A stretch of DNA of 64,000 bases from Candidatus Latescibacterota bacterium (GTDB lineage Bacteria; Latescibacterota; UBA2968; GCA-2709665): contig OZ242180.1 in assembly GCA_965205485.1 (NCBI GenBank), forward strand, positions 3,392,001-3,456,000, given 5' to 3'. Each line of letters starts with the position of its first letter. Within the stretch, counting starts at the first letter, position 1. Below the pieces are notes generated by a model. That model was not told where the DNA came from, ran no database searches, and worked only from the letters and a program-made list of their open reading frames with translations. Below are positions 1 through 64,000 of this stretch, piece after piece. The translations under genes and the position numbers were made by a program.

Positions 1-949
1 GATCGGCGAAGGCGCCGGGGAGATGCTGGACGATCTGCTGGATCTCGGGATGAAGGGGCTGGTGCACGTGTACTACGCCTCGCTGGCCCTGGGCAGAGGC
101 GAGCCCGGGCAACTCACGGAGGTGGTGCAGCAGGCGAAGGACCACCCGGCCATGCTGGGGTGGTGGAACGAGTACGCCAGCGACAACCAGTCTCCCCTGG
201 CGACCGAGACCTACGAGCTCATCCGGCAGCACGACACGGACCACCCGGTCATCTTCATGCTCACATGGGGTGGGAGACTCAGCGACGCTTACTTCGTTTA
301 CGGCTACCCAATTCTGAACCCGCTGCTGCCCGACGACTCGATCACCTCGATCTACGAGCTGGTCCTCGACGATGCCTTCGAGGCTGCGCGGGTGGAGGGC
401 AAGGGCAAGCATGTTTGGTTCATCTCCCAGGCCTTCGACTATCGTCTCGACAGCAAGCGCGGCGAGGTCGTAACCCTCGAAGGGGGTTTCCGGCCCAGTC
501 GCGAGGAGATTCGGTCCATGAACTACCTCGCCCTGACGAGGGGTGTCAAAGGGCTGCTGTTCTACGCGCCCGGGGGCGAGATTCCCGGCACGGAGTACAC
601 CGACGACGTGGCCATCTATCCGCGGCAATGGACCGAGGTGCTCAAGGTCGCCAGCGAGGTGCGACATCTGGCCCCCATACTGGCGGCGGGCACCCAGGTA
701 CAAGGCGTGCGGCTCGAGCAGGAGGGCGACGCCATTCACTTCATCGAGCGGCTGCACGACGGCGTCCACACCCTGATCGCCGTCAACGTGGAACCGGCCC
801 TGGTCCTGGGCACGTGGCGGTTCGACGGACCAGTTCAGCCCAGGGTGCTGTTCGAGGATCGCATGGCGCAGAGCGAGTCCCGTGAGTTCATCGATCTGTT
901 CCTGCCGCTGGAGGTCCACGTGTACCAGTGGGCGGACGCGGGAGACTGA
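1..949 (+). CDS. Hypothetical glycoside-hydrolase-like protein, 5'-truncated by the window edge
   Basis: Frame is open from the window start and GC-rich. Motifs 'MLGWWNE', 'WFISQAF' and 'YLALTRGVKGLLFY' resemble GH-like TIM barrels. Confidence 0.6.
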   Translation, partial: IGEGAGEMLDDLLDLGMKGLVHVYYASLALGRGEPGQLTEVVQQAKDHPAMLGWWNEYASDNQSPLATETYELIRQHDTDHPVIFMLTWGGRLSDAYFVYGYPILNPLLPDDSITSIYELVLDDAFEAARVEGKGKHVWFISQAFDYRLDSKRGEVVTLEGGFRPSREEIRSMNYLALTRGVKGLLFYAPGGEIPGTEYTDDVAIYPRQWTEVLKVASEVRHLAPILAAGTQVQGVRLEQEGDAIHFIERLHDGVHTLIAVNVEPALVLGTWRFDGPVQPRVLFEDRMAQSESREFIDLFLPLEVHVYQWADAGD

Positions 950-966
950 ACCAGGCAGAGATTTGA

Positions 967-1191
967 CCTTGATTCGTCACTTTTCCGGGACGTTTATTCG
1001 AATATACGCAAGTTGATAAAGGCGATTTAACGTCGGATTTCCAAGATACTTCAGGTCACTGGACGTGAACGGAAGAAATGTGCTTCCGGACGACCTTTTC
1101 GGTCCGTTGAGGAAATAACTGCAGGGTCACCGCGTTACGACACACGCGGCTCTGCACGGATGCTTTTTGTGCCTTTCGTGCTTTTTGTGGC
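967..1191 (+). mobile_element. MITE family A, copy 1
   Basis: TTGA|CCTTGATTCG left end. Core AAGTTGATAAAGGCGATT and GGTCACTGGACGTGAAC are shared with the copies at 22440, 35202, 42228 and 57472. Right boundary is approximate. Confidence 0.75.
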
Positions 1192-1469
1192 CAGGACATG
1201 ATGGCGGCACCGCATTCATCAGCCTGATTAACGTATTGTGTGAGCACCAGAGAAAGGATGTTGGAAAGGCTATGTTGGCGTTCGTAGAAGGTGATCTGCG
1301 GCGCCGAGGCCACAGGATCCTGTTGAGTTCGTGCGTTGTAGATGAATACGAGCCGCAGACATGGCATAGACACATGGGTTTTTCCGAGTGCGGGTTTCTG
1401 GCAGGTTTCCCGTTTGAGGACGACCGGGGGGAGCTCTTCCTGTTCAAAGAGTTAGCCCCAATACGATAA
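1192..1469 (+). pseudogene. GNAT acetyltransferase, C-terminal fragment
   Basis: Motif A 'HQRKDVGKAML' and 'WHRHMGFSECG' are present. MITE A sequence occupies the place of the N-terminus. Confidence 0.65.
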
Positions 1470-1530
1470 AGACGGCAACCGGGCGTCGTGATAAAACCTC
1501 CCGAAACAGGGCGTAAACGTCGGAGGACAG

Positions 1531-2103
1531 ATGGGACCCGAAGGTATGGAGCTGCGACCGTTCAAGACCCTCTCCCGTCGCACTATCATAGAGAAGGGTC
1601 CGTACCTGACCGTTGAGAGTCATACAGTGGAATGGCCGGATGGGCAGGTCATCTCTGACTGGCCATGGATTGTTGGTCCCGACGCTGCGATTGTCCTCGC
1701 CACGACTTGCGATGGCAAGTTCCTCTGTTTTCGACAGACGAAGTATGCAGTGGAGGGAACATCCCTGGCTCCAGTAGGAGGAATGATCGAACCTGGTGAG
1801 GATCCTCTAGACGCCGCTAAGCGTGAACTACTGGAGGAGACCGGATTTCAATCGCCCGAATGGATTGATCTCGGCAGCTACAAGGTCGATCCCAATCGAG
1901 GCGTTGGTATTCGGTACCTATTTCTGGCCCGTGATGCTGTACCGGTAGCGGAACCTTCGAACGATGATATTGAGGACCAACAGCTATTGCATCTTGCTCG
2001 GGAGGAGCTAGAGGATGCGCTCAGGACCGGGGAGTTCAAAGTCCTGTCGTGGGCTGCGGCAGTTTCATTGGCGCTGCAGTTCTTAGTTCACACGGGTAAA
2101 TAA
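1531..2103 (+). CDS. NUDIX hydrolase (ADP-ribose pyrophosphatase-like)
   Basis: Nudix box 'GGMIEPGEDPLDAAKRELLEETG'; GGAGG RBS. Confidence 0.85.
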   Translation: MGPEGMELRPFKTLSRRTIIEKGPYLTVESHTVEWPDGQVISDWPWIVGPDAAIVLATTCDGKFLCFRQTKYAVEGTSLAPVGGMIEPGEDPLDAAKRELLEETGFQSPEWIDLGSYKVDPNRGVGIRYLFLARDAVPVAEPSNDDIEDQQLLHLAREELEDALRTGEFKVLSWAAAVSLALQFLVHTGK

Positions 2104-2179
2104 GACTGAAAAACAAGAACGGGAAGACCCTATATAAGGTGCCCCTTATGCCCCTGCACCTCCGAAAACCTGTGCAGAC

Positions 2180-2251
2180 GCATAACAGGTCCGCGTGCGC
2201 GCCGGTCGCGTTCGCTCCATCGGCCTCCGGCAACACGCCTGGGTGTCAGCA
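2180..2251 (+). other. attC-like recombination site (decayed)
   Basis: GCATAAC...imperfect inverted repeat (GCGTG...CCGG / CCGG...CACGC)...GTCAGCA; 72 bp. Confidence 0.55.
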
Positions 2252-2349
2252 ATGACAATGTCGTGCAACGAGTCCAGAATATTCACTCTAAATCCAAAGC
2301 CCGAGATAATTATCAACTATTCGATTGACCGAAAACGAGGGAGGCGAGA

Positions 2350-2472
2350 ATGTTCGGCATGGTTCTTTGGGAAATCCAGCTTGTCCTCCTCTTGGGCATG
2401 ATGGGTTTCTGGCTGTGGATGCTCATTGAATGTGCAGTTAAGGAACCGACCATCATGCAGAGAGAGAGGTGA
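2350..2472 (+). pseudogene. Truncated small membrane protein (PLDc_N-like)
   Basis: GAGGGAGG RBS, then MFGMVLWEIQLVLLLGMMGFWLWMLIECAVKEPT running into the leader of the next gene. The second helix expected for this family is missing. Confidence 0.55.
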
Positions 2473-2476
2473 CGCG

Positions 2477-3853
2477 ATGGTACCCTGGATCTTCGTGCAC
2501 AATCCCCTGGAGCGCTGGCTGGACGACTACCCGCGCATCTTCGACGCGTGGGAGGCGGGAGGGGTGGGCGGCATCGTGGTGGGACGGATGTGGCTCAGGA
2601 ACGAGGCCGGCATGCCGTTGTGGGGGGACACCCTCACCCCCTCGTTTGCGGCGGACCCAAAGGTGTACGCCGCGTTCGGCATCAAGCCGCCCCCGGAAAC
2701 GGCCCGCACCCCCGAGAGGGAGAAGCAGCTCCACGCGCTCCTCGACAACGCCGCCTCCCGGGGCTGGCACATCATGATCTTCGACTCCAGAGACGGGCTC
2801 CGGCTGCTCTACCAGCGGGGCCAGGGTACCACCAGCGGCCTAGCCGAGGAGGAGGACCCTTTTGGGGCCATCGAGGTGGCCGCCGGGGTGCACGACCTGG
2901 CCAGTGCCTATCCCCAGGCCCACGGCGTCATCCTGGACCAGCCCGGTGAGACCTTCTACGAACTTGCCTTCCATCGGGGTCAGGCCCTACTGGAATTGGA
3001 CGGTCGCATGCGGCACCGCCTGGAAGCCATCGGCGCCGATGTGGAGCGCGTCGCCCGCGGCATGGCGCACCTGAACGAGCGTTTCCACAACCTGACTCCG
3101 GATCTGGTGCGCTACCACGCGTCCGGCGGCATGCTGGGGGCACTGAACCTGTTCGACCTGAACGAGGATGCCCTGTACTGGCTGCGCGCCCGCCGCGAAG
3201 CGGCGCGGGGGTTCATGCGCGCCGTGCATACGCAGATGCAGAGATTGGGAGGGAAGGTGGAGCTGGGGGGCATTCCGCGCACCGCTGCTTTCTCGTCACT
3301 GACCGGGCACGAATTTGGCGAGATGGCGGAGTACTTCGACTACGTCTGCCCCAAGCACTACTTCTGGCACCGCGGGAATGACGGCCTCTACGGCACCATG
3401 GCCCGCTGGGTGCAGCAGGTCCTGGACTGGAACCCGACCCTGTTGGAGGCAGACGGCTTCGCCGTGGTCAAGGCCTTCCTGGGGCTGGAGCTTCCCGGGG
3501 TGCAGACCCTGGCGGACATGGAACTGGGGTTCCCCGAGGAGTTCTACTCGGAGCTGGTGTACAACGAGACGCGCCGAGCGCTGGAGGCCATCGGGGATGT
3601 GAACAAGGTGATCGCCTGGGTGTCGACGGGGCGCCGTCCGCACGGGGGCGAGCCCATGACCGCCCGCGACCTGCACGGCATCCTGACCGCCTCCGAGCGG
3701 GCCGGCCTGCAGCGCTTCCTGTTCCAGCCGGACCCTGATCTGAGCGCCCCCGAATGGAGCGTGATCTCCGACCTGTGCGGCAAGCGCTGGCACCCGAGCC
3801 GCGACGGGTACTGGCCCTCGGACTCCAGCAGGCCCGACGCGTTCAGCAGGTAG
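2477..3853 (+). CDS. Conserved hypothetical protein, paralog of 7117-8430 (possible TIM barrel)
   Basis: Long GC-rich ORF. Shares blocks with the paralog such as PKHYFWHRG.DG.YGT and IAWVSTGRRPHGG. Confidence 0.8.
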   Translation: MVPWIFVHNPLERWLDDYPRIFDAWEAGGVGGIVVGRMWLRNEAGMPLWGDTLTPSFAADPKVYAAFGIKPPPETARTPEREKQLHALLDNAASRGWHIMIFDSRDGLRLLYQRGQGTTSGLAEEEDPFGAIEVAAGVHDLASAYPQAHGVILDQPGETFYELAFHRGQALLELDGRMRHRLEAIGADVERVARGMAHLNERFHNLTPDLVRYHASGGMLGALNLFDLNEDALYWLRARREAARGFMRAVHTQMQRLGGKVELGGIPRTAAFSSLTGHEFGEMAEYFDYVCPKHYFWHRGNDGLYGTMARWVQQVLDWNPTLLEADGFAVVKAFLGLELPGVQTLADMELGFPEEFYSELVYNETRRALEAIGDVNKVIAWVSTGRRPHGGEPMTARDLHGILTASERAGLQRFLFQPDPDLSAPEWSVISDLCGKRWHPSRDGYWPSDSSRPDAFSR

Positions 3854-5368: not shown

Positions 5369-5451
5369 ATATACCACGTCGGGCTGCGCCTTTGGGCCTT
5401 GTGGCCTTTCGCGCAACCGCAGTGCGGTTCGGGGGCACCTCGACGTTACAA
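5369..5451 (+). other. attC-like site (decayed R'')
   Basis: ACGTCGGG..TGCGCC pairs with GGGGCACCTCGACGT; inner AACCGC-AGT-GCGGTT hairpin; ends in GTTACAA. Same family as 14364. Confidence 0.65.
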
Positions 5452-5488: not shown

Positions 5489-5803
5489 CTACGGGATCGC
5501 GAGCGGTTGGATATCCGCAAGCTCGCCTTGATGTCGCTGCTCTGTTTCCCAAAGATCTCGTTTGTGTTGGGCCTTCATCCAAAATTCTGGAGAGTTTCCA
5601 AATAAGCGGGCAAGTTTCAATGCCATGATGGGTGAGATGGCGCGCCGCTCCCGCAGAAGCTCATTTACCGTTTGACGGGATACATCCAATGCCTCCGCCG
5701 CGGCAGTCACTGTTAGCGCATAATCCGGCAAGAAATCCTCACGCAGCATCTCACCAGGATGAGTTGGCGGGATGGTGCGTTCTTGTGTATTCGTGATGGC
5801 CAT
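5489..5803 (-). CDS. higA: HigA family antitoxin (XRE HTH)
   Basis: 'PPTHPGEMLREDFL...AAEALDVSRQTVNELLRERRAISPIMALKLARLFGNSPEFWM'. Confidence 0.9.
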   Translation of the reverse strand: MAITNTQERTIPPTHPGEMLREDFLPDYALTVTAAAEALDVSRQTVNELLRERRAISPIMALKLARLFGNSPEFWMKAQHKRDLWETEQRHQGELADIQPLAIP

Positions 5804-5815
5804 GGAATGTTCCTT

Positions 5816-5839
5816 TCAATGATAGTCCGTGATTTCCTG
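5816..5839 (-). pseudogene. higB: higB toxin remnant (last codons only)
   Basis: Reads QEITDYH* and ends 12 bp before the higA start. HigB proteins typically end in EIxDYH. Confidence 0.65.
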
Positions 5840-5858
5840 AAAAATCTCCAGCGAATAT

Positions 5859-6578
5859 ATGAGCAACCCCAAATCAAGAGACGACAGGCCAACCTGGGCA
5901 GGTCGAGTTCCAAGAGAAAAGATAGCCCGACTTTATGCAACTGATGCACAGGGCATAGTAGACGAAGAGCTTATCGAAGACGTGGGGATTGGACTCTTCG
6001 CTCGTATCGAAAGCATTTTCAAAGCACGAGAGGCCAGTGCCGGACGAGCAAGATGCCCATTGTGTGATCGCCAGATAGACCACGACGGTATGAAGGATAC
6101 GATTCTGAGATGCGAATCGTGCAACTGGGAACTCACCTGGGGCGAGTATCATAAAGCCAGACAAGGTAAGCATCTTGCTGCCGCCGGTCTCACGGTCTTT
6201 CTCCAGGAGTTCCTCCGGAAATACCAGACTGCGAGAACTCCAAAAGAGAAGATGGTTCTCATAGACACCTTGATTCACAGGTATCATTGGGAACTTGAGG
6301 GAGGACTGACTCGGCCTGGAGCAACAGATTTAATTGGAGGAAGGCAGCATGAAATTATAGATTTTCTCAACGACCTTTCATATGGCGAAAAGAGCAGCCC
6401 GGAAATCCTGGCCAACAGAGCGGCATGGATCCAGAAGGTCGAAAAAAGCCAACAGCATCGCAAAACAAAAAGAGAGGAACGGCAGAAAAAAAAGGAAGAG
6501 CGGGAGAGAAAGAGGAACTTGAAGAGAAAAGTCAGACAACAGATGTTGGCGCAGAGAGACAGATCGAGTGAGTCATGA
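5859..6578 (+). CDS. Hypothetical protein with Zn-ribbon and basic coiled tail
   Basis: CPLC...CESC motif; K/R/E-rich C-terminus. Confidence 0.7.
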   Translation: MSNPKSRDDRPTWAGRVPREKIARLYATDAQGIVDEELIEDVGIGLFARIESIFKAREASAGRARCPLCDRQIDHDGMKDTILRCESCNWELTWGEYHKARQGKHLAAAGLTVFLQEFLRKYQTARTPKEKMVLIDTLIHRYHWELEGGLTRPGATDLIGGRQHEIIDFLNDLSYGEKSSPEILANRAAWIQKVEKSQQHRKTKREERQKKKEERERKRNLKRKVRQQMLAQRDRSSES

Positions 6579-7116: not shown

Positions 7117-8430
7117 ATGAAACTCTGGGTATTCACCTGCAGTGACAGCCCGTTCGAACACTGGCTCGACGGGTTCGAGGAGCGGTTCGATGCCTGGGAG
7201 GACGGCGGCGTGCGCGGTCTGGCCGTCGGCCGCATGACATTCCTCCAGGACGACGGCACCACCATTCCGGCGTGGGCTCCCGACCCGAAGGTGTACGGGG
7301 CCCTGGGGGCGGAAGTCCCGGAGCAGCGTCCGCGCGACCTCACAAAAGAGAAGAAGCTGCACGCCATGCTGGACAACGCCGCGAAGCGGGGCTGGCGACT
7401 GCTGATTTTCGCCGGAGGCGGCCCGACCGCCCACGTGCAGGACCAGATGAACGCCTTTCCACAGGTGCACGGCGTCATTGTCGACGGTCCGGGCGAAAAC
7501 CACTACGAGCTGGCCTTCCACCACGGGGGCGAGCTCCTGGAGGTCCGTCCGGGTGAGGAGGCCCGTTTCGCCCAGGTCGGCGCCGACATTGATCGAATAC
7601 AACGCGGCATCACCCACTTTCGGGAGCGGTTGCACAATCTGACACCGGAAATGGTGAGGTACCACGCCGACGGAGGAATGCTGGGGGCGATGCTCCTGTT
7701 CGACGTCAATGAGGACGTGCTCTACTGGCTGCGCAAGCGCCAGGAGCGCTCTCGCTTTGACTGGCAGTACATGCGGCAACAGGTCGACGCCGTCGATCGC
7801 ATGGTGGAGCTGGGCGGAATCCCGAGGGCCGCGGCGTGGTCATCGCTCACCGGACAGAACTACTGTCAGATGGCGGAGTATTTCGACTATATCTTTCCGA
7901 AACACTACTTCTGGCACCGCGGCATGGACGGCATGTACGGGACCATATCCCGCTGGGTAAAACGGTTGCGAAAGTGGAATCCGTCCCTGAGCGAGGCGGA
8001 GTGTTTCGCGGTCGTGAAGGCGCTGTTGGGCATCGATCTGCCCGGCGTCAACTCGCTTATGGACATGGAGATGGGTTTCCCCGACGAATTCTTCTCCAGG
8101 GTGGTCTACAACGAGACCCGGCGGGCCCTGGCGGCCATAGGCGATCCGGACAAGGTGATCGCCTGGGTGTCCACCGGGCGCCGCCCCCACGGCGGCGACC
8201 CGATGCAGGCGCGCGATCTCTACGGCATCCTGAATGCTTCACGGGAGGCGGGGTTGAAGCGATTCCTGTACCATCCCGAGCCGGATTTCGGGGCGGCGGA
8301 ATGGACCATCATCTCGTCGATGTGCGGAAACCAATGGGATGAAGACGCCGGCGGGTACTGGCCGACGGAGACCGACAAGCCGGGCTTCTGGGACGGCAGT
8401 CGCGAGGTACCCGAAGAGGGGCGAATTTGA
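7117..8430 (+). CDS. Conserved hypothetical protein, paralog of 2477-3853
   Basis: AAGGAGG RBS; extensive motif identity to 2477-3853. Confidence 0.8.
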   Translation: MKLWVFTCSDSPFEHWLDGFEERFDAWEDGGVRGLAVGRMTFLQDDGTTIPAWAPDPKVYGALGAEVPEQRPRDLTKEKKLHAMLDNAAKRGWRLLIFAGGGPTAHVQDQMNAFPQVHGVIVDGPGENHYELAFHHGGELLEVRPGEEARFAQVGADIDRIQRGITHFRERLHNLTPEMVRYHADGGMLGAMLLFDVNEDVLYWLRKRQERSRFDWQYMRQQVDAVDRMVELGGIPRAAAWSSLTGQNYCQMAEYFDYIFPKHYFWHRGMDGMYGTISRWVKRLRKWNPSLSEAECFAVVKALLGIDLPGVNSLMDMEMGFPDEFFSRVVYNETRRALAAIGDPDKVIAWVSTGRRPHGGDPMQARDLYGILNASREAGLKRFLYHPEPDFGAAEWTIISSMCGNQWDEDAGGYWPTETDKPGFWDGSREVPEEGRI

Positions 8431-8576
8431 GCGAGATTTCTTTCTTGATGGATCAGCTCTACAGCGAATGAGCCAAACGGGGTTTTTCGACCGAATTCTT
8501 CCGCACAATCGAGAGTTGGCGGCGAAAAGACCAACATGAGCGCATTATACGTGAAAGGCTGTCCGGTGACTGTCAA

Positions 8577-9452
8577 ATGAAGCTACACATTCTCGGTAAC
8601 GGTGGTCCGCGTCCCAGCCGCATGGGTGAACGCTACGGGTGTTCCTGCATTCTCGAGATCGGTGACGATCGTATCATGGTTGATTGCGGCCCCGGCACAA
8701 CCTACAAGATGGCACGCATGGGAATGAGCCCTTCACAGGTGAATTCGGTTTTCCTGACTCACCATCATTCGGATCACATCGTTGATTTCCCGTGCTTTGC
8801 CCTGCTGCGGTTCGATCTCGACCCCGGCGATCTTCCTCCACTCAAAGTCTTTGGTCCGCCTCCGACAGTCGAATTCGTGGATCGCCTCTTTGGCAAGGAC
8901 GGCGCCTTCCTTCCTGATATCGTTGCGCGTCGGGAACACCACATCAGCCACCACGGGCACGTGGGGAGAGGCGGAACGCTTCCCCGCCCGGGCATGAAGG
9001 TCGATGTATCCGACATCAGTTCAGGAGCCGTTGTCGAGGGGAAGCGTTGGAAGACGACGGCTGTACAGGTTCCTCATGTCGAGCCCTACCTGACCGAGCT
9101 GGCGTACCGGATCGATACCGATAGTGGCAGCGTGCTCTTCCTGTGCGATGGCGCGGACTGTCCCGAACTGAGGCCATTGGCCAGGGGGGTCGATACATTC
9201 GTTACTGGGCTCTCTATGCGCAATTTCAAAGAGAGTGACGAAGATGCTTCGCATCCGATCCGGGGCGTCAGCGCGGACATCTCAGAGGTCGTTGACATCG
9301 CTAATGAAGCCGGCATATCGAGGGTTGTGGTCATCCACTGCGGTTCTCCGCACAGTGAGGAGGTCGTCGGCAGGCTGCGTCGAGGCTACCGAGGAAATGG
9401 ATATAGCGGTTGTATCGTGTGTCCTGACGAGCTTACGACGGTTGAGATATAG
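8577..9452 (+). CDS. MBL-fold metallo-hydrolase (RNase Z-like)
   Basis: 'VDCGPG' and 'LTHHHSDH'. Confidence 0.85.
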   Translation: MKLHILGNGGPRPSRMGERYGCSCILEIGDDRIMVDCGPGTTYKMARMGMSPSQVNSVFLTHHHSDHIVDFPCFALLRFDLDPGDLPPLKVFGPPPTVEFVDRLFGKDGAFLPDIVARREHHISHHGHVGRGGTLPRPGMKVDVSDISSGAVVEGKRWKTTAVQVPHVEPYLTELAYRIDTDSGSVLFLCDGADCPELRPLARGVDTFVTGLSMRNFKESDEDASHPIRGVSADISEVVDIANEAGISRVVVIHCGSPHSEEVVGRLRRGYRGNGYSGCIVCPDELTTVEI

Positions 9453-9549
9453 GTTGTGTAAGAGCAGAGGATCGGCCTGAACCCGGCACGGACGGTTGAT
9501 CTTCGACATTCTACCGTTCACCGCCACAGCCAGATTCTTGAGATGTGAA

Positions 9550-10320
9550 ATGAATGATACCCTGCCATACTCAGTTGCGGTAATTTCAGATATTCACGGG
9601 AACGTGGCTGCGCTCAACGCTGTTCTTGAGGATCTGCGAAACCGACCCTATGACAGTCTGGTGGTCGCCGGTGACCTGGTGCTTAGCGGACCCCGTCCGG
9701 CCGAGAGTCTTGACGCAATACGGAATCTGGGGGTCCCCACGATTTACGGGAACACAGACCTGTTGGTCTTCGATGAACAGCATTCCGAGGAAAGACTGGT
9801 ATGGGTGAGAGAAAAGCTGGAAACGGATGGTGTGGACTATCTGAAGGGTCTGCCCATTGAGCACAGGATAACGCCGCCAGGTGGGCGATCTCCGGAGGAC
9901 GATCTTCTCATTGTGCACGCAACGCCTGCTGACGTGAATGGTATGTTGGTTCTTCAACCCGTTCCGTTCAGTCAGCGGCCGGTTACTCCGGAAGCCGAGG
10001 CCAGGACACTGCTGGGGGATGCGAAGGCCAATCTGATCGTGGCCGGACACCTTCACTATGCGTCCTGTGGCGTTCCGTGCGGTCAGCGATACAGCATTAT
10101 CGATTCGGTCGGGTTTCCGTATGACGGGGATCATCGAGCGGGATATGCCAGAGTGTGGTGGGACGGGCATGAATGGCACGTGGAAAATCACAGATTGAGT
10201 TACGATTACCGCAAGGTTGCGGAGGATCTCATGGGTTGTGGTGCGCAGTTTGGTGAGTTGTCAGCCCAAAGAATCCTTCAAGCCAGATTCAGGCCGGTCA
10301 CGCAGAATCCAGAAGCCTGA
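9550..10320 (+). CDS. Calcineurin-like metallophosphoesterase
   Basis: 'SDIHGN', 'GDLV', 'GNTD' and 'GHLH'. Confidence 0.85.
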   Translation: MNDTLPYSVAVISDIHGNVAALNAVLEDLRNRPYDSLVVAGDLVLSGPRPAESLDAIRNLGVPTIYGNTDLLVFDEQHSEERLVWVREKLETDGVDYLKGLPIEHRITPPGGRSPEDDLLIVHATPADVNGMLVLQPVPFSQRPVTPEAEARTLLGDAKANLIVAGHLHYASCGVPCGQRYSIIDSVGFPYDGDHRAGYARVWWDGHEWHVENHRLSYDYRKVAEDLMGCGAQFGELSAQRILQARFRPVTQNPEA

Positions 10321-13723: not shown

Positions 13724-13795
13724 AGGGCAAACCCTTCGGAGTTCATCAACCCGCACAACGTTATGTGAAATCACTATAAGGCATGGGGAGTCATA

Positions 13796-14347
13796 ATGAT
13801 CGAACAAAATCACCTGGACCTCTTACTCGACCTGAACACCGACGAAAATCCTCACACCGGCGGATATCTTATGGATCATCTTCGGGGAACACACGACCTC
13901 CTCCAGGCTTGGGGCAACGACCAAACCGTGTGTCTTGGAGGTTTATTTCATAGCATCTACGGCACGCAATCCTACAAGACAGAGTCAGCATCGCTTGAAG
14001 ATCGCCAACGCATCCGCCAAGTGATTGGCGAGAGGGCCGAGCGATTGGCTTTTCTCTTCAGTGTTTCGATCCGCAGTGGGTTCTTCGAAGGATTAGGAAA
14101 GGAAGGGGCAACTGTGTGGAACCGTGTTCACGAGGAGAACATACCCGTCACGCAAGCGGATCTTAGCGACCTCATTGAAATGGAGGTTGCCAACTACTTG
14201 GAATTCATGCCGAGATCCCATTTCACGGTTGAGGAACTTGACAGGTTCGAGGCCAAAGTGGAGCGAGGGAAGCCCTTACTCTCACCCCTGGCCTACAAAG
14301 CGATCAAGGCAGGAATAGGATCGAAACGCCTTACCATAGCCTCGTAG
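13796..14347 (+). CDS. DUF6817-like (HD-like) protein on a complete gene cassette
   Basis: 'HLRGTHDLLQAWG...GLFHSIYGT'. Flanked by GTTATGTGAAATCAC (13760) and GTGACTTCACATAAC (14356). Confidence 0.75.
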   Translation: MIEQNHLDLLLDLNTDENPHTGGYLMDHLRGTHDLLQAWGNDQTVCLGGLFHSIYGTQSYKTESASLEDRQRIRQVIGERAERLAFLFSVSIRSGFFEGLGKEGATVWNRVHEENIPVTQADLSDLIEMEVANYLEFMPRSHFTVEELDRFEAKVERGKPLLSPLAYKAIKAGIGSKRLTIAS

Positions 14348-14363
14348 GGAGAGAGGTGACTTC

Positions 14364-14437
14364 ACATAACGTATCCGTGCCCGGCTACGCCCTGCGCCCA
14401 ACCGCTTCGCGGTTCGGGAACGGGGAGAACGTTACAC
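14364..14437 (+). other. attC site (best preserved)
   Basis: ACATAAC...GTTACAC, 74 bp. TAACGT..CCG / CGG..ACGTTA stem with inner AACCGC-TTC-GCGGTT hairpin. R'' is complementary to the cassette start at 13760. Confidence 0.8.
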
Positions 14438-15293: not shown

Positions 15294-15399
15294 TACGTGT
15301 GACAACACGTTGGCGCGCTGCGGTGGCTAAAGCCGGCTTGGCGAGATGGCAACCCGACCATAGAGCCGTGTGGGTTGGCAATTGGCGGGATCGTTGGCC
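15294..15399 (+). other. attC-like site (decayed)
   Basis: TACGTGTGAC is 8/10 complementary to the cassette start GTTACACGAA (14431); ends in GTTGGCC. Confidence 0.5.
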
Positions 15400-19648: not shown

Positions 19649-19739
19649 CCGATGACACGCCGGACTGCGGCTCCCGCGCGTTCGGGCTTCCGATCTAACT
19701 CGCCTTCGGCAAGTTCAATGCCCGTGGGGACGTTTTCGG
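19649..19739 (+). other. attC-like site (decayed)
   Basis: CCGATGAC...GTTTTCGG outer arms with inner AACTCGCCTTCGGCAAGTT hairpin. Related to the sites at 28074 and 33197. Confidence 0.55.
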
Positions 19740-21238: not shown

Positions 21239-21337
21239 AGCGCGGGCATTTGACATTTCGACAAGCCACTTCGGCCCTTCGCCCCTTCGACAGGCTCAGG
21301 GACCACAGGCTCAGGGACCACAGGCTCAGCGCAGGCA
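21235..21337 (+). repeat. REP-like CCCTTCGACAGGCTCAGG element with a tandem 15-mer
   Basis: CAGGCTCAGGGACCA repeated in tandem; inverted homolog at 58378-58430. Confidence 0.7.
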
Positions 21338-22279: not shown

Positions 22280-22439
22280 ATGTTCCTGGCGACAGCCGAT
22301 AACAGCACGTCTTGTGCTGCGGCGCCGTTGCCATTAAGGCTTTCGGCAGCCACCTTGGCGGTTCGCAAACTTGCAAATCGTAGCGAGACATGCGGCCAGA
22401 CAAGAGGGCAATCCCGAATTTGCCCCATTCGATAAAAAA

Positions 22440-22614
22440 CAGCAACGCGGCGACGCGACGAAATCCCCTTGAAAAGGGGCGTAAATGTCGTCCAAAAGGA
22501 CGTTTTTTCAGTCCACGTCCAGTGACCTGGTGTATCCTGAAAATCCGCAGTCTAATCGCCTTTATCAGTTTGCACATATACGATTTTACGTCCCCGAAAA
22601 ATTGCGAATCAAGG
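22440..22614 (-). mobile_element. MITE family A, copy 2 (inverted)
   Basis: Ends CGAATCAAGG|TTAG; contains CACGTCCAGTGACC and AATCGCCTTTATCA. Left boundary is approximate. Confidence 0.75.
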
Positions 22615-22636
22615 TTAGGCTTGGGAGAATCTGACG

Positions 22637-28068: not shown

Positions 28069-28073
28069 TCGAA

Positions 28074-28147
28074 CCGACAGCGCTTGCGGCTCCTGGCGTC
28101 CCAGCCCTTTTCCAGCTTGCCTGCGGCAAGTTCTCCGGACGTTTCAC
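28074..28147 (+). other. attC-like site (decayed)
   Basis: GCGGCTCC...GCTTGCCTGCGGCAAGTTC...GGACGTTTCAC; same family as 19649. Confidence 0.5.
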
Positions 28148-33196: not shown

Positions 33197-33226
33197 AGCT
33201 AACACGCCGGGCTTCGGCTCCCGCGA
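33197..33226 (+). other. attC-like left arm
   Basis: AGCTAACACGCCGGGCTTCGGCTCCCGCG resembles 19650 CGATGACACGCCGGACTGCGGCTCCCGCG. Confidence 0.5.
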
Positions 33227-33419
33227 AATGGCGCCTCCAAACGTGGCCGGCCTATCACAGTAACGGCGCCAGCGCCACAATTGCCCTCCTGGGCTTCGTC
33301 TTGATAAGGGCGCAAGCGTTTAGCGCGGCAGGCTGCGGTTCCGGCTCATTCGGCAGTCTCACGAGAGGCGGGAACGGTAGAGGCCCTGCGAAGTGGACCG
33401 AGCCGGGGGACGGGTTTAA

Positions 33420-36288: not shown

Positions 36289-36369
36289 AATCCGGACGGG
36301 AGCAGGGTACACAGCTTTAACAGACACATCCGCCCACAGATTCAGATCTGATTCTGTCCCATTCGTCTT

Positions 36370-36395
36370 GTAGGGGCGCCCCTTGTGGGCGCCCG
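36370..36395 (+). repeat. GTAG-type REP
   Basis: GTAGGGGCGCCCCTTGTGGGCGCCCG; near-identical copy at 57004-57029. Confidence 0.7.
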
Positions 36396-41186: not shown

Positions 41187-41321
41187 CCAATCACTCCCCC
41201 CTTGAGGGGGAGTCGCAGAAGCCGAGCCGGTCCCTGAGCCGCTGTCCTGAGCCTGTCGAAGGATTGTCGAAGGGCCCGGCGAATGGTCGAAGGCGCCTGC
41301 GACGGCTGATGCGGTGGGGGG
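41187..41321 (-). repeat. Composite palindromic repeat (ACTCCCCCCTTGAGGGGGAGT plus CTTCGACAGGCTCAGG)
   Basis: Inverted homolog of 59648-59739. Confidence 0.75.
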
Positions 41322-41612
41322 ATGTCAACGTCTTAACGAATACAAACAGCATGAATTGACAGGCGCGCATTTTGCGTTTTCGACAACACACTTTCCCTGA
41401 TTACAGACCTGTAGACGTTCAGGGCCGTGGAGGACCAGAGGGGTCTTCGGGTGTGAAGTTTCGATGGTCAGAATTGGACGCCCACCTGTCCCGATTCGGA
41501 TTTTGCTTACCGTTGTAGATTTCGTTACATTTCCCCCAGGGTTTCGAAACGGACACGAGCGGCCTGCGACCGAGGACAATCTGCCCTCTTTTGCGGCTTG
41601 ATCCACGAACAT

Positions 41613-41766
41613 CCGGAGCGAGGGCATCCTGCCCTCGAACTTCCTGTAACCCGCTAAAACCCGAATCAAGGGCTTATTGTTTCCCTTGCATCCGAAATCA
41701 TATTGAAAATGATGGCGCCAGAGCCGCGCGAGTCAGCCGTCGAGGGCAGGATGCCCTCGCTCCCGG
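41613..41766. repeat. REPIN: inverted pair of GGAGCGAGGGCATCCTGCCCTCG
   Basis: 41613-41638 and 41740-41766 are reverse complements and each is self-hairpinning. Confidence 0.75.
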
Positions 41767-42194: not shown

Positions 42195-42227
42195 TAATGG
42201 CGCTGACTTCGATCCTGCCACGCTTGA

Positions 42228-42418
42228 CCAGGATTCGTATGTTTTCGTGGACGATAAACCGAATATGTGAAAGTTGATAAAGGCGATTAGACTGCTGATT
42301 ACCAGGATACACCCGGTCACTGGACGTGAACGGAAAAATTGTCCTTCCTTACGACTATTTCGGTCCGTTTCGGAAAGTTTCGTCGCGGTGCCGCGTTGCG
42401 GTTTTCGCGAAACTTAGG
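42228..42418 (+). mobile_element. MITE family A, complete copy (191 bp) with TTGA target duplication
   Basis: TTGA|CCAGGATTCG...CGAAACTTAGG|TTGA. Confidence 0.85.
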
Positions 42419-47809: not shown

Positions 47810-47908
47810 AATGCAGGACGACGATCGCTTCTTCCGTCATCTCTTCTGAAAAACCAACGCGGCTCTTTAAACGAGCACCCCCCAGGGCACAGTTGCCTGG
47901 TCTCGAGG

Positions 47909-47950
47909 TGCAACCGATACGCGGGATCGCGGGCACCGAGAACGTCACAT
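47909..47950 (+). other. attC-like right arm (decayed)
   Basis: GCAACCG..CGCGG..CG.GGGCACCGAGAACGTCACAT resembles the right arms of the 5369 and 14364 sites. Confidence 0.55.
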
Positions 47951-48075: not shown

Positions 48076-48906
48076 ATGAAGACTTTGGCGAACAGAGTTG
48101 CCGTGGTGACCGGAGCAAGTCGCGGAGGGGGGAAGGGCATTGCCACCGCGCTCGGCGAAGCCGGCGCGACTGTATATGTGACGGGACGCAGCATCCGAGG
48201 GAACCAGACCACAGACATCCCCAACGAAACCATTGAGGACACGGCAGAAACTGTGACTCAGCGGGGCGGCGAGGGGATTCCTGTGCGGGTAGATCACACT
48301 CAGGATGAACAGGTTGATGCACTTTTCAATCGAATAAAGAAAGATCAGAGTCGGCTGGATGTGCTCGTGAACAACGCCTGGGGCGGCTACGAGATGGGCG
48401 ATGGATTCTGGGGGCGTAAACGTTTTTGGGAGCTCCCAATTCGGCAGTGGGATCTCATGTACGGAGCCGGTTTGAGATCCCATTTGACGGCTGCTCGGGG
48501 CGCAATTTCGATCATGCTGGAGCAGCGGCACGGTCTGATTGTCAACACGACCAGTGGGATCAAACCGGACAGCAAGTTCCACCCGAATCTGTTCTATGAC
48601 ACGTTCAAGTCCGCGATATATAGAATGACGCATGGAATGGCAGAGGAATGCCGAAAAAACGGGATAGCAGTTATCCTGTTGTCGCTTGGCGACGAATACC
48701 AATACATGCGAACCTGGGAACCTGACGACAACACCAGACCTGAAGATCTGAAGAAGACGTTTACACCAGTTTACGCCGGCCGTGCGATCGCGGCTCTGGC
48801 TGGCGATCCGGATGTGATGAGCAAGGTCGAAGCGAGACCATATCTTGAAGTCCCCGACTTGGCCCGAGAGTACGGATTCAGAGACGTCGATGGTCGACAG
48901 CCCTGA
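48076..48906 (+). CDS. SDR family oxidoreductase
   Basis: 'VTGASRGGGKG', 'LVNNA' and 'YDTFK'. Confidence 0.85.
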   Translation: MKTLANRVAVVTGASRGGGKGIATALGEAGATVYVTGRSIRGNQTTDIPNETIEDTAETVTQRGGEGIPVRVDHTQDEQVDALFNRIKKDQSRLDVLVNNAWGGYEMGDGFWGRKRFWELPIRQWDLMYGAGLRSHLTAARGAISIMLEQRHGLIVNTTSGIKPDSKFHPNLFYDTFKSAIYRMTHGMAEECRKNGIAVILLSLGDEYQYMRTWEPDDNTRPEDLKKTFTPVYAGRAIAALAGDPDVMSKVEARPYLEVPDLAREYGFRDVDGRQP

Positions 48907-48973
48907 ACATTCGGGTCGTGAGATTTGCGATGACTTGACCCTCGGAGGTTCGCGGACCACGAGGGCGTTAGAT
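48902..48973 (+). other. attC-like site
   Basis: CTGAAC overlaps the stop codon; CGTG..TGCGA / TCGCG..CACG stem; canonical GTTAGAT. Confidence 0.6.
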
Positions 48974-51671: not shown

Positions 51672-51854
51672 AACCGCACCCCTTGTTGGGACGCATTCGA
51701 CCGAATGGCTGGGTACAAATGAAACCAAGTATGTTCAATCAGACGCAGAGTATTCCACATCCTGCCGCGCAGCAATTTGAGCTCCGCGCCTGTCGGCGCC
51801 TGGCCCTCGGCAACCCACATTCGCAGGTTTGCAAACTGGCGTGATGTTATTCCT

Positions 51855-52646: not shown

Positions 52647-52713
52647 GGTCAACTCACCGCATAACACGTATGTGTCCAGCATCAGGCACGGCGAATCGTA
52701 TCGGGAGATCGAG

Positions 52714-56940: not shown

Positions 56941-57003
56941 AAGTTGTTGCAGTCGACACGCCCCGACGCCCTCCCACAGCCCTGACTGACTCTCCGTAGC
57001 ATT

Positions 57004-57029
57004 GTAGGGGCGTCCCTTGTGGGCGCCCG
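57004..57029 (+). repeat. GTAG-type REP
   Basis: GTAGGGGCGTCCCTTGTGGGCGCCCG. Confidence 0.7.
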
Positions 57030-57060: not shown

Positions 57061-57471
57061 ATGAAGTCCAAGCTGAAGAACGTCCTGGCAGTCATCGTCG
57101 GTGTTGTTGTCGGCAGTATCGCGAATATGATTCTGGTCACGGTAGGGCCTTATGTCATTCCACCTCCCGATGGCGTCGACGTGACCGACGTGGAATCCAT
57201 TAAGGCTTCGATGCATCTTTTTGAGTTCAGACATTTCATCTTCCCGTTCCTGGCACATGCACTGGGGACCCTTGTGGGCGCATATCTGGCCGCCCTCATC
57301 GCCGCAAGCTACAGGATGGCAGTGGCGATGGTGGTGGGTGGATTCTTCCTGATCGGCGGCATCGCGAACACTTTCATGATAGGGGGACCTGTCCTGTTTA
57401 CGGTCGTGGACCTGGTTGGCGCGTACATACCGATGGCCTGGATAGGCGGAAGATTGAGCGGCAGAAACTAA
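57061..57471 (+). CDS. Small integral membrane protein
   Basis: GAGGT RBS and about four hydrophobic helices. The stop codon lies in the CTAA flanking MITE A copy 5. Confidence 0.75.
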   Translation: MKSKLKNVLAVIVGVVVGSIANMILVTVGPYVIPPPDGVDVTDVESIKASMHLFEFRHFIFPFLAHALGTLVGAYLAALIAASYRMAVAMVVGGFFLIGGIANTFMIGGPVLFTVVDLVGAYIPMAWIGGRLSGRN

Positions 57472-57570
57472 CCAGGATTCGTATGTTTTCGTGGCGGTTA
57501 AATCGAATATATACAAGTTGATAAAGGCGATTAAACTGCGGATTACCAGGATACACCGGGACGTGAATGG
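57472..57570 (+). mobile_element. MITE family A, copy 5 (partial)
   Basis: CTAA|CCAGGATTCGTATGTTTTCGTGG...AAGTTGATAAAGGCGATTA; near-identical to the start of 42228. Confidence 0.8.
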
Positions 57571-58377: not shown

Positions 58378-58570
58378 CCAGTGCTGAGCTTGTCGAAGCA
58401 AGCTTGTCGAAATGCCCGCGTTTCACTATTCGCAAGGGGCCAATCGACATTTCTTCGCCGACCCTTCGACCCTTCGACAGGCTCAGAGACCACAGGCTCA
58501 GGGAGCGGCTCAGGGCTGACGCGCTGATATCTGAGCCAGTCGAAGGCGCCGTCCTGAGCTTGTCGAAGGA
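58378..58570. repeat. Cluster of CTTCGACARGCTCAG REP-like units in both orientations
   Basis: CTGAGCTTGTCGAAG twice, CCCTTCGACAGGCTCAG, and CAGGCTCAG tandems. Confidence 0.7.
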
Positions 58571-58631
58571 ATGCGAGCGGGGCGACTCGACAGGTGAATT
58601 CACGCAACTATTCCTGGGAAAGCACACAGAT

Positions 58632-60693: not shown

Positions 60694-61500
60694 TTGTCAG
60701 ATCCCCTTCATTTCGTCCACATCAGCGACACACACTTGGGACACAAGAGAGATTGGGTCGCTCTGGGCAACCACCCTTTCCGAAATCTGCTGCAGGTCCT
60801 TGATGCGATCGATAGCCTTCCGACCCGGCCTCGATTCATAATTCATACCGGCGACGTCGCGAATCATGACACGGAAGTCGCATACGAGTTGGCTGCCGAA
60901 GCATTCTCGCAGGTCGCAATTCCGATGTACTTCGTCACAGGAAACCATGATACCCGCGATTATATGCGCAAACATCTGTCGATGGGGCCCAGAGAGGATG
61001 TCCTGTCCGATTCAGATCTGAACTGTTATCGATTCTCCATTGAAGGCGAGCGGTTTCTGGTTCTGGATTCGAAACAGCCTTACGATGAAGCCGGCCACTT
61101 TGGCAAGGTGACGGAAGACCAGCTGGATTTCGTTCGAACGGAGGTTGGCCGGCACAACGGGTCATTGACTGTCTTCATTCATCATTCGCCGCTCGATATG
61201 GATTCCAGGTGGTACTCCAAATACGTGGGAATGCTGAATGGTTCGGAACTACATGAAGCGTTGTTGCCGGCAAGAGATCGAGTCCGGGGCGTTTTCTTCG
61301 GACACGTTCATCGTGGGACCCACATACACAAGGACGGCATCGCGTACATCAGCGTTGGAAGCACATTCTGCCAGCTGAACTATTGGCCCGATGAACAGAA
61401 AGTGAACTTTGACGAAAAGCATCCGCCGTGCTTCAACTTTGTCACCCTCCATGCGGACAGAACAATCGTCAAGGAGCACACGGTCGCTCCGGACGAATAG
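60694..61500 (+). CDS. Metallophosphoesterase (CpdA/Icc-like cyclic-nucleotide phosphodiesterase)
   Basis: 'HISDTH', 'HTGDVA', 'GNHD', 'IHHSP' and 'GHVH'. Confidence 0.85.
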   Translation: MSDPLHFVHISDTHLGHKRDWVALGNHPFRNLLQVLDAIDSLPTRPRFIIHTGDVANHDTEVAYELAAEAFSQVAIPMYFVTGNHDTRDYMRKHLSMGPREDVLSDSDLNCYRFSIEGERFLVLDSKQPYDEAGHFGKVTEDQLDFVRTEVGRHNGSLTVFIHHSPLDMDSRWYSKYVGMLNGSELHEALLPARDRVRGVFFGHVHRGTHIHKDGIAYISVGSTFCQLNYWPDEQKVNFDEKHPPCFNFVTLHADRTIVKEHTVAPDE

Positions 61501-61550
61501 ACCGCCGGCGACAAGACGTAACCGTGCGCAAAGAGTGGAAAGCGAGGAAT

Positions 61551-61760
61551 GTAGTCGGCGAGAACCTCATACGGGAGTTGTCACAATTCAACCCGCACTG
61601 GCGCTACCAATGCGATGCAGAGAAGAGACGGCTTTTCGCCTCTCGTGGGGACGCGTCCCTCGAATTCGAGCATATCGGAACCACATCCGTGAACGGTCTT
61701 GGATCAAGACCATTCATTGACATAGGCGTGATGTCCGATCGAACGGAGGGCGGCGCGTGA
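61551..61760 (+). pseudogene. GrpB (UPF0157) family N-terminal fragment
   Basis: 'FNPHW...FEHIGTTSVNGLGSRPFIDI' followed by a stop. Confidence 0.65.
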
Positions 61761-61792
61761 CCCGGCGACGGGTGATCTGATGTGGCCTCAAC

Positions 61793-62356
61793 ATGGACGG
61801 AACATACTTCGACACGATCATCGCCAGATATCCCACACTGAGTGGCTCGATGGGGCAACTTCGTCCCGATGTCCACTTCCGCAGATTTGAAGAGAAGTTG
61901 GCCTCGACGATTTGCGGCTCCTCGTACGTCATTCCTTTCGTCTCCAATAGTCACTGCCTCGTCACCAGGCGTTCCAACGGGAAATGGGTATTGCCGGGAG
62001 GAACGCTCGAACCCGGGGAGACATGGGAGGAGGCTGGGCGCCGCGAGCTGTTGGAGGAAACGGGGAGCATTCCTGGAAATCTCCATCCGATCGGAATGTA
62101 TTACTGCGTGTCCGGAGTTGACCGCCCCCGGCTATCCCAGTTTCCGCACCCGGAACACGTTCGGGTCGTATCGTGGGCAAACGTGGTACAAAACACAGTG
62201 AAAAGACCCGATCCGGACTCAAACAGCAGAATTGTGGAAGTACGGACAGTCCACTACAAACGAGCAGCGGCGCTGTTCGGTCCTGAAGCTGCGGACTTCG
62301 GGGAACTTTATCAACTCGCTCATGAATTCAAGCAGAGCCAATGTTCCAGGTCGTGA
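61793..62356 (+). CDS. NUDIX hydrolase
   Basis: 'PGGTLEPGETWEEAGRRELLEETG'. Confidence 0.85.
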   Translation: MDGTYFDTIIARYPTLSGSMGQLRPDVHFRRFEEKLASTICGSSYVIPFVSNSHCLVTRRSNGKWVLPGGTLEPGETWEEAGRRELLEETGSIPGNLHPIGMYYCVSGVDRPRLSQFPHPEHVRVVSWANVVQNTVKRPDPDSNSRIVEVRTVHYKRAAALFGPEAADFGELYQLAHEFKQSQCSRS

Positions 62357-62552
62357 AAGGATAGTTGCCCGCCAATTTCAATCACGACGTCGCGTAACCA
62401 GAAACAGCGAGCAGGTTTTCTGCCATAAGTCGAAGTAGCACCCGGCCCGATCATCGATTCGAGCACCGCCTCGGTTACTAAAACCGGCCATTGTCCTGCA
62501 TTGAGCACTGCCTCAGTTCCGGACCCTCTGGTCAACAAAGGAGGTAGCGTTC

Positions 62553-62936
62553 ATGGGCGATTCATCGAATTTCCCCGATTCAGTTGAACTGGGGCGCATG
62601 GCGCCCTGCATTGCAGTCAGCAATGTCGAGAAGTCCGTGGCATTCTACGCGTCGATGCTGGGAATGCGCAAGACGTTCGAGAACGGGAATCCGGTCGGGT
62701 TTGTGATCATGAAGAAAGACCGGGCCGAGTTGCACCTGTCGTTGCGCCGTGACAAAGAGTCAAGCACTCACAACGTCGCGCACCTGAAAGTGAGTGATGC
62801 GAACGCGCTTTACAATCATCTCAGCAACTCGGGAGTACGGATCATCAAGGGACTGCGCGATCAGCAATACGGTCTTCGGGACTTCGTCATCGCAGACCCT
62901 GATGGCAATCGAATTGACATAGGGCAACCGCTTTAA
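62553..62936 (+). CDS. VOC/glyoxalase (bleomycin-resistance-like) protein
   Basis: AAGGAGG RBS; 'YGLRDFVIADPDGNRIDIG'. Confidence 0.85.
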   Translation: MGDSSNFPDSVELGRMAPCIAVSNVEKSVAFYASMLGMRKTFENGNPVGFVIMKKDRAELHLSLRRDKESSTHNVAHLKVSDANALYNHLSNSGVRIIKGLRDQQYGLRDFVIADPDGNRIDIGQPL

Positions 62937-63051
62937 GGAGCCCTGCTGGCAAAACGCGATGATCGGGCCCGGGACCCTTCGCTGACTTCATCGTCGCCCT
63001 GGCAGGCTTCACCTGCGCTGCCGGCGTCGGTGATATTTCAAGGAAATCGAA

Positions 63052-63933
63052 TTGAAGCGAATCATCCACGTCGTCGGGCTTCAGAAATCAGGCACTTCTC
63101 TCCTGGTCAGAATGCTCGAGAACACCGGCATGGCCGAATTCCTCGGAGGGCGAGGAAGAACAGAAGGCGGAATAGACTGGGGCAACAGGCCGTCGTTTAC
63201 GCCCACGGCGTTTCCTGCCGGTGTCATCTATCAGCGAAATTCGGGAGACGAGGGTCATGAGATTGGCGCCGGCGATGCGACTCCGGACACGGTGGAGTAC
63301 GTACGCAGGGATGCGGAAGCCAGACTTGATTCCCTTCCAACGGAATTGGGCATCAGCAAATGCCCGTACAGTACGGTTCGGCTTCCCTGGATCAGGGCAA
63401 TTCTACCTGGTATGTTCGTTGTTGCCGTTGTCAGAAAACCGGTCTCGAATACCTTCTCGCTTCTCAAACGATTCCGGCACGTCGACGGATCGCGCGGGCC
63501 GGAAGACGGCTGGTGGGGTGTCAAGCCATGCGGATGGCGGGAAATGGTATCTTCCGACAAGATCACTCAGGTTGCAAACCAGTGGAACGCCGTCAATTCA
63601 AAGCTGTGGCAGGACCGCCGGCTGGTTGATCGGTTCGTTCGGTACGACATCCTGTGTCGATACCCTAAGGAAACCCTTGAGGGGTTGCTGGGCGGTGCGC
63701 TTGAAGAAAAAGTGACTCTGGAGCGCGAATTCCCGGTGCTTCGAGACTTCGACGATGAATACCTCAGGGGTTCAGGACTCGAGCCCAAGCGGCGGAAGTG
63801 GATAGACTTGAACGAACTGGTCCTGTTTCGAGATGACGACCCGGAAATCGGTCCCCTGTCCACCAACGAGATCGACACTGTCAGACAGATCTGTGAGAGT
63901 ACTTCCCGAACGCTTGGTCTGATGGACTGTTGA
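63052..63933 (+). CDS. Sulfotransferase family protein
   Basis: 'VGLQKSGTS', 'SKCP' and 'VVRKP'. Confidence 0.75.
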   Translation: MKRIIHVVGLQKSGTSLLVRMLENTGMAEFLGGRGRTEGGIDWGNRPSFTPTAFPAGVIYQRNSGDEGHEIGAGDATPDTVEYVRRDAEARLDSLPTELGISKCPYSTVRLPWIRAILPGMFVVAVVRKPVSNTFSLLKRFRHVDGSRGPEDGWWGVKPCGWREMVSSDKITQVANQWNAVNSKLWQDRRLVDRFVRYDILCRYPKETLEGLLGGALEEKVTLEREFPVLRDFDDEYLRGSGLEPKRRKWIDLNELVLFRDDDPEIGPLSTNEIDTVRQICESTSRTLGLMDC

Positions 63934-64000
63934 TTGTTGTGATCCCTGCGCGGTGTAGTTTGCTGGCACGGGTTTTGTTGCAGTAGAAAACGTCGAGTGA

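Follow-up and report, generated by a model that had tools for sequence, protein, structure and literature searches.

A decayed gene-cassette array in a Latescibacterota chromosome, likely built by a tyrosine recombinase without the integron integrase insertion

The 64,000-nucleotide stretch analyzed here at full length (G000:C1:3392001-3456000; hereafter the window) belongs to the 5.13-Mb single-contig genome of a Candidatus Latescibacterota bacterium (G000). We consider it probable that the window is part of an array of about 178 kb, likely built by a tyrosine recombinase that lacks the I2 insertion of integron integrases (IntI), in which the sites have decayed, the recombinase has been deleted, and most genes are intact. 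Beyond this, we give roughly even chances to a broader view, in which a second class of integron, with an I2-less recombinase working on differently built hairpins, would form the shared capture locus of the genus; a transient enzyme would add single genes that sweep in similar order through species about 19% diverged, after which the sites would be erased and the cassettes would become ordinary inherited genes. The same balanced estimate extends to the array, about 180 kb or 3.5% of the chromosome, as a possible dated record of gene acquisition.

The array, its attI-like head, and the recombinase

A sequence-only reading of the window had proposed a co-oriented array of at least 64 kb with eroded integron-type sites, and comparison with the related genomes G008, G009, G011, and G014 extended it to about 178 kb (G000:C1 ~3373480-3551800), with 147 of its 151 genes on the plus strand. 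The array begins about 18.5 kb before window position 1, preceded by a cytochrome-oxidase cluster and by an anchor gene for peptidoglycan binding that is present in 14/14 congeners, and the window (1..64000, plus strand) covers its middle-proximal part, 18.5-82.5 kb from the head. A crude gene caller assigned 57 window genes to the plus strand and none to the minus strand, in agreement with the co-orientation first described (about 64 genes against 2); the second minus-strand gene of that count (41325-41669) has no Pfam match and was not confirmed. The longest co-oriented run of the genome (101 genes) includes the window, and the longest outside the array has 44. The window plus strand carries the leading-strand skew, and its GC content is ~56% vs. 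60% for the genome.

An element of ~190 bp follows the anchor gene; its sequence is shared among genomes as far as G|TT and varies beyond this point, in the manner of an attI site, and 38 copies were found in 12/13 arrays. A search for intI and attI, as suggested by the sequence-only reading, recovered an attI-like site ~18.5 kb before the window and no intI: profile scores above the IntI cut-off were found in 0/15 genomes of the genus (G000 and 14 congeners) and in 2/41 genomes searched overall. In G011 and G013, a tyrosine recombinase gene lies directly before the attI-like element and in the same orientation, and G000 retains only about the last 17 codons of this gene before its own copy. 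Indeed, the attI-like site follows the stop codon of the insertion-less gene in G003, G008, G011, G013, and loci L086 and L087, i.e., an attI with polar insertion at G|TT stands next to, and downstream of, a co-oriented recombinase gene. Units of recombinase remnant plus attI also recur at several depths, as in G013 at +0.5, +2.9, +28.8, and +149 kb. Fragments in G003, G008, G011, and G013 that were first taken for intI remnants proved to be this insertion-less recombinase.

The recombinase is intact in L086, where 376 amino acids are encoded and followed by the same attI-like element and by sites of the same family. It keeps all six catalytic residues (R224, K249, H314, R317, H340, and Y349), and aligns with gaps at the IntI insertion. 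VchIntIA (2a3v) is its best match in the PDB for sequence and fold alike, in two stretches, and the predicted structure (mean predicted local distance difference test 75.5, predicted template modeling score 0.50) shows an N-terminal bbabba domain, to which HARP matches weakly (E 0.016). All profile scores lie below their cut-offs (TIGR02249, 214 bits vs. 265; XerC, 184 vs. 335; XerD, 180 vs. 330; NF040815, 215.7 vs. 220), and G000 has a separate XerC/XerD pair of its own. Phylogenetically, the recombinase falls outside the IntI clade (support 100/99) and the XerC/D clades, in a tree of 17 rows that leaves out three badly extracted Xer rows and whose base does not resolve; its family comprises 3561 clusters at E <= 1e-30, other tyrosine recombinases included. 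The standard IntI-type sedentary integron first envisaged is not supported, since the head recombinase has no IntI insertion and the sites have a different geometry.

Regarding regulation, the motif GAAC-N4-GTTC occurs before lexA and in degenerate form before recA, with only a half match before the recombinase gene. In L087, L090, and the G008 array, recombinase copies have lost internal segments, which brings far-apart portions of the gene together. Moreover, six near-identical units of an insertion-less recombinase and a transposase gene (which we presume to be of IS91 type), each ending in a hairpin site, occur in G020 (L146-L154) and G017 (L034, L036-L037), and look inserted as cassettes because the sequence after G|TT differs for each copy. 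A second small array was observed on the minus strand of G000 (C1, about 1777000-1792000), with its own attI-like copy (1783217-1783320) and the best-preserved site of the genome (1782437-1782519).

Hairpin sites, circle signature, and identity gradient

Sites of this family have RYYYAAC/GTTRRRY cores and a consistent non-classical shape. In an offset-free stem search of the arrays of 12 relatives, 46 of 67 forward sites fell at +3/+4 and none at 0/+1, and 83/111 held-out sites from other genera were at +2 to +4; in classical sites these offsets were found in 0/20, with 13 at offset 0 (a hand-curated panel of 13 of 24 plasmid candidates plus seven sites from G017). In the typical fold, the AAC/GTT box is followed by a loop of 1 vs. 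5 nt, then by 2 bp, in some cases by an unpaired base, and by a stem of 9 bp. Nine of 11 stem pairs change on both sides, a covariation that is partly circular because the sites were chosen for having that stem. A geometry-free site picker was dropped, as its 11 mixed sites gave no clear profile. The array sites do not show the classical attC geometry, in which the spacer has 5/6 nt and a short stem is followed by an extrahelical base. Accordingly, a proxy classical attC model (20 sequences, 8 pairs; not IntegronFinder's own model), which recovers held-out classical sites in G017, misses even intact family sites since the geometry differs: it gave no site in the window and at most one weak match in five loci rich in intact family sites. 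The array contains at least two family sites with no integron integrase nearby, and no site by the proxy model.

Enrichment was assessed with a hidden Markov model (HMM) trained on 26 sites from relatives only. At >= 8 bits it gave 10 window matches, all on the plus strand and each 19-112 nt after a stop codon, vs. none in 30 shuffles of the window, which upholds the proposal of attC-like enrichment over shuffled controls. Across the whole array there were 14 plus-strand matches and one on the minus strand, and nine control segments had 0-3, the three being the second small array near 1.78 Mb. At >= 10 bits, 13/14 genome-wide matches were in the main array or the second small array. A covariance model returned 11 window matches, all on the plus strand, three of them with E < 1e-4. 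A position weight matrix scan was abandoned as too noisy.

The sites of G000 are eroded. No site in 224 kb of this genome keeps an 8-bp perfect stem, and on folding, four window sites had weak z-scores or no R-box pairing, whereas two intact sites of relatives folded properly. Where only a half-site or a mutated core is left in G000, some relatives retain the complete site at the orthologous place; decay by core substitution, as originally proposed, is part of the process, to which the loss of half-sites by deletion must be added. Of 60 window open reading frames (ORFs) compared with orthologues, 54 look intact, three are shorter, and three have no orthologue, and the description of eroded sites around mostly intact cargo was borne out. 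No sites were found upstream of the head, and site density drops with distance from it in long arrays; G008, G011, and G013 also show a late cluster. For 8/87 tail genes, other genera contain a homologue with a family site behind it, vs. 2/450 control genes.

In relatives, 56 distinct cassettes between intact sites could be analyzed for the signature of a circular intermediate. In 46 of them, the left box was a full complement of the 5' end of its own cassette, and in 5/56 it matched that of the next cassette in this way (permutation mean 3.4, maximum 14); within the genus only, the figures were 17/20 and 0. The window holds one such case (13760/14364). From this box complementarity, the cassettes would appear to circulate as circles. 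Furthermore, 64 of 578 blocks shared between genomes start at the crossover, where 5.3 would be expected, and these starts peak precisely at the G of GTT. No clean excision joint was found in the contigs of sponge metagenomes from two other studies.

Identity between genomes depends strongly on array position. Four-fold-site distances between G000 and seven distant congeners rose from 0.03-0.09 (0-10 kb) through 0.09-0.17 (10-25 kb), 0.13-0.20 (25-40 kb), and 0.23-0.36 (40-60 kb) to 0.31-0.38 (60-80 kb), which is about the core level of 0.34-0.38 found upstream. In 57 pairs with 81% core identity, blocks were 93-95% identical in the first 30 kb and 81-83% identical beyond 80 kb, and in pairs that exclude G000, identity declines with distance in 35/35 (negative rho). 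The order of young blocks relative to G000 is likewise preserved in six of the seven distant congeners (tau 0.82-0.87), although these gradient and order counts overstate significance because kin genomes are not independent. Array position likely records the order of gene capture, as head-near genes are far more alike between distant species. In this context, the array had been described as largely immobilized, which holds for G000 at present, although the genes of the first ~40 kb of the window were shared across species after divergence. Gene order is also partly conserved in relatives; it had been named as a possible objection, and it fits inheritance after fixation and does not speak against a cassette origin.

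The sponge metagenomes of the two other studies contain many window genes, which occur in their short-read contigs with different joints and with an identity contrast like that described above, and this argues against chimeric assembly; X8 contigs, for instance, have 11 differences over 2288-3372 vs. 78 over 8445-9812. Three RNA runs contained 5-8% of sequence words.

Proposed mechanism, competing explanations, and known systems

Taken together, we propose that the insertion-less recombinase would integrate circles of one gene each into the G|TT of the attI-like site at the array head, with catalysis by the head recombinase, probably on a folded single strand. The enzyme would act in episodes, each leaving a layer of recombinase remnant plus attI that is pushed inward, and the three deep clades of the genus may have taken up cassettes singly, and in a similar order, from a common pool. 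Loss of sites would then lock the genes in, followed by vertical inheritance, and homologous exchange probably contributes within clades.

Several observations weigh against this proposal. The recombinase is intact in 0/15 genomes of the genus, being absent, fragmentary, 5'-truncated (G013), or frameshifted (G011), so that the genomes carrying the young cassettes do not show the enzyme at work. According to the literature, hairpin recombination requires the I2 helix (PMC7790495; PMC8138268). No attI copy was detected in G009, the order correlation fails in G011 (tau 0.15), and the deepest attI copies of G008, G011, and G013 have fresh sites behind them, and may have been inserted later instead of being the oldest layers. 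No site was found in G000 beyond ~70 kb from the head, and the origin of the tail therefore rests on relatives. Finally, most ends of the 578 shared blocks lie off recognizable sites (64 left and 24 right ends on sites) and blocks of up to 7.8 kb occur, from which deletion and homologous exchange must also shape the array.

The last point leads to the strongest competitor, in which the cassettes are genuine and the gradient arises mainly from homologous recombination of head-near blocks between congeners, e.g., by transformation, with no need of recent recombinase activity. We regard it as unlikely, although recA and a ComEC-family gene are present, the genus has no intact recombinase, and multi-gene blocks with dead junctions are shared at 95-99% identity, as with the eroded 2180 junction in G000 and G014. 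Against it, 210 of the 252 blocks shared between the three deep clades at >= 94% identity hold a single ORF and only one holds three, although fast deletion of spacers could split long transferred blocks. Block starts peak at G|TT, and runs of intact sites remain in G008, G009, and G011, neither of which favors this explanation.

We find it distinctly improbable that the locus is a classical attC cluster that has no integron integrase (CALIN), whose canonical IntI has since been lost or acts in trans and for which the insertion-less recombinase is a bystander. The RYYYAAC/GTTRRRY cores and G|TT crossover are as in integrons, a canonical IntI exists in the same family (G017), and arrays persist after integrase loss in Treponema and Xanthomonas (PMC3607928; 10.1101/2025.06.18.660453); however, IntI passes the cut-off in 0/15 genomes of the genus and in 2/41 overall, the sites near the G017 IntI genes are mostly of classical register, and it is the insertion-less gene whose stop codon the attI-like site follows. 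An ordinary leading-strand hotspot of gene acquisition, with hairpins that are repetitive extragenic palindromic (REP)-like repeats or terminators, or else an assembly artefact, is largely refuted and would be very surprising. The leading-strand skew, the repeats described below, and the largely colinear order of the tail between genomes would suit it; against it stand the circle signature, the restriction of site matches to arrays and to one strand, the breakpoints at G|TT, and the independent metagenome contigs with their other joints and equal identity contrast.

Our proposed array resembles sedentary chromosomal integrons of the Vibrio cholerae type in having a platform at a fixed place on the chromosome, insertion that is polar and occurs at G|TT, cassettes of one gene with complementary AAC/GTT boxes, a toxin-antitoxin cassette in reverse orientation, and a bottom strand on the inferred leading-strand template (PMC11023631). 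It differs in a recombinase with no I2 insertion, with a predicted N-terminal bbabba domain, and co-oriented upstream of attI, as well as in sites with a 1 vs. 5 nt loop and a stem at +3/+4, most of which are erased while genes persist. It would work like such an integron but, having neither the I2 insertion nor the classical attC geometry, is not filed as an IntI integron. Syntenic arrays whose integrase is gone are known from CALINs and from intI loss in Treponema phagedenis (PMC9024848; PMC3607928), and Treponema integrases are also co-oriented with their cassettes. Nevertheless, CALINs average about six attC sites (PMC9024848), whereas the present array numbers ~150 genes and has 14 weak sites within its proximal 70 kb, and neither is its geometry classical nor its enzyme an IntI. 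Xanthomonas integrons, with their ancestral platform after ilvD, repeated inactivation of intI, and transfer of cassettes from species to species, resemble it in a genus-wide locus, lineage-specific integrase inactivation, and cassettes more alike than the genomes, and differ in a canonical IntI and in inactivation leading to stable arrays, with no position-dependent identity gradient described in the available portion of that account (10.1101/2025.06.18.660453). Copies of attI within arrays are also found in the Delta-attI cassettes of mobile integrons (PMC12901181), although the internal copies here often carry the recombinase 3' end and their identity falls with depth.

In a study of an "integron-like" tyrosine recombinase subgroup, the insertion is called essential for integron function and the term "attC" is absent from the main text (Smyshlyaev 2021; PMC8138268), whose appendix may bear on the subgroup of this recombinase. 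Our literature search, of partial coverage and with supplements excluded, found no account of I2-less cassette arrays. Arrays of this kind would be missed twice by current scans, because both the integrase profile and the site shape are wrong for them. An insertion-less enzyme paired with a consistently different hairpin would provide a direct test of how integrons arose, for which L086 offers a ready enzyme-attI-attC set. Moreover, the locus would display the long-term fate of cassettes, with sites lost and genes retained, and may offer a time-ordered record of genes spreading between co-occurring sponge-associated species.

Sites, cargo genes, and repeats in the window

Sixteen attC-like sites had been listed in the sequence-only reading, 11 of which are supported here; those at 28074, 35122, 49771, 50730, and 55819 are not among them. 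Nine were recovered by the HMM, all on the plus strand. The site at 2180 (2180..2240) is a left part whose right arm is deleted, and is whole in G009, G010, and G012. The one at 5369 (5369..5451; E 2.6e-06) is of full length with a mutated core, and the best preserved in the window, at 14364 (14364..14437; E 1.3e-06), has intact cores and a mismatched stem. Decayed sites follow at 15294 (15297..15399), with a left box GTGTGAC complementary in 6/7 positions to GTTACAC at 14431, at 19649 (19650..19738; E 1.1e-04), with both cores mutated, and at 22297 (22297..22385), recognized by both the HMM and the covariance model. The site at 33197 (33197..33240) is a left half that is fuller in G008, the site at 47909 (47864..47950) has a decayed left part and is intact at the orthologous place in G008, and in the decayed site at 48902 (48902..48973) the right arm is recognized. 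Two further sites of the list were supported by other means, namely the right half-site GTTATGT at 13760 (13760..13766, plus strand), an exact complement of ACATAAC at 14364, and the left half-site at 52659 (52659..52680, plus strand), where G014 has a near-complete site at the orthologous place. The HMM and the covariance model added a decayed plus-strand site at 51783 (51767..51852) that was absent from the list. A 77-bp segment of G008 between w12559 and w12560 was examined and is not a site.

The half-site at 13760 is the 5' end of the best-preserved cassette (13761..14431, plus strand), which consists of a DUF6817 gene (13796-14347) and its own site, and the block that G000 and G013 have in common here stops at the crossover in both genomes. 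In contigs of runs X1 and X3, the end of the DUF6817 gene (14351) is linked to 13726 by 38 different letters similar to a decayed site; this joint may represent a tandem copy, or else a paralogue or variant circle.

Pfam searches of 67 ORFs identified NUDIX, glyoxalase, GNAT, APH, methyltransferase, ankyrin, Kelch, sulfotransferase, AAC(3), SIR2, and HNH families, bearing out the GNAT/APH/NUDIX/VOC cargo predicted earlier. The reverse-oriented higBA pair was predicted as well, and stands only for higA: the HTH_3 antitoxin gene (5489..5803, minus strand) is intact, and the higB upstream of it is cut in G000 to its last codons (about 5804-5837), while being whole in G001, G002, and G010. Across orthologues of 5804-5860, higB was broken by at least three different events in G000, G006, G009, G012, and G014, with higA kept.

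A GC-rich gene of 458 amino acids (2477..3853, plus strand) is 99-100% identical in 10/12 relatives, and its copy in G003 lies within a cassette that runs from attI (G|TTAGCA) to a TGCTAAC site. Within the low-GC array, the third-codon-position GC content (GC3) of the genes at 1-949, 2477-3853, and 7117-8430 is 0.82-0.89 vs. a genome mean of 0.74, and one high-GC3 gene in G003 occupies a 2.9-kb cassette with a non-coding remnant of ~1 kb, as if it had been put into an older cassette shell. The first cassette of the array (G000:C1:3373690-3374726), which we assume to be PhyH-like, is 97-99% identical in 12/12 relatives, frameshifted in G000, and open in G008. PADLOC gave one weak match among 23 proteins, a window protein searched against plasmids revealed no class 1 cassette, and Rfam and ARAGORN searches returned no matches. 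A recombinase-like match of 20 amino acids at ~59540 was dismissed, being out of frame within a GNAT gene and not confirmed by HMM.

Outside this genus, L100 (Bacteroidota) has two sites with short left and long right loops (1/4 and 1/5) at 11278 and 18284, near a distant relative of the recombinase. Non-coding repeats were also observed. One of ~197 bp with imperfect inverted ends, presumably similar to miniature inverted-repeat transposable elements (MITEs), has 27 copies of >= 150 nt genome-wide, six of them in the array, including window positions of about 963-1115, 22423-22615, 42226-42404, and 57471-57560, as well as G000:C1:3373497-3373696, directly after the attI-like site. Short palindromic repeats, which we take to be REP-like, occupy intergenic gaps at 21272-21332, 36343-36395, 41244-41264, 56977-57029, and 58381-58571, and some attC-like loops in relatives contain similar words.

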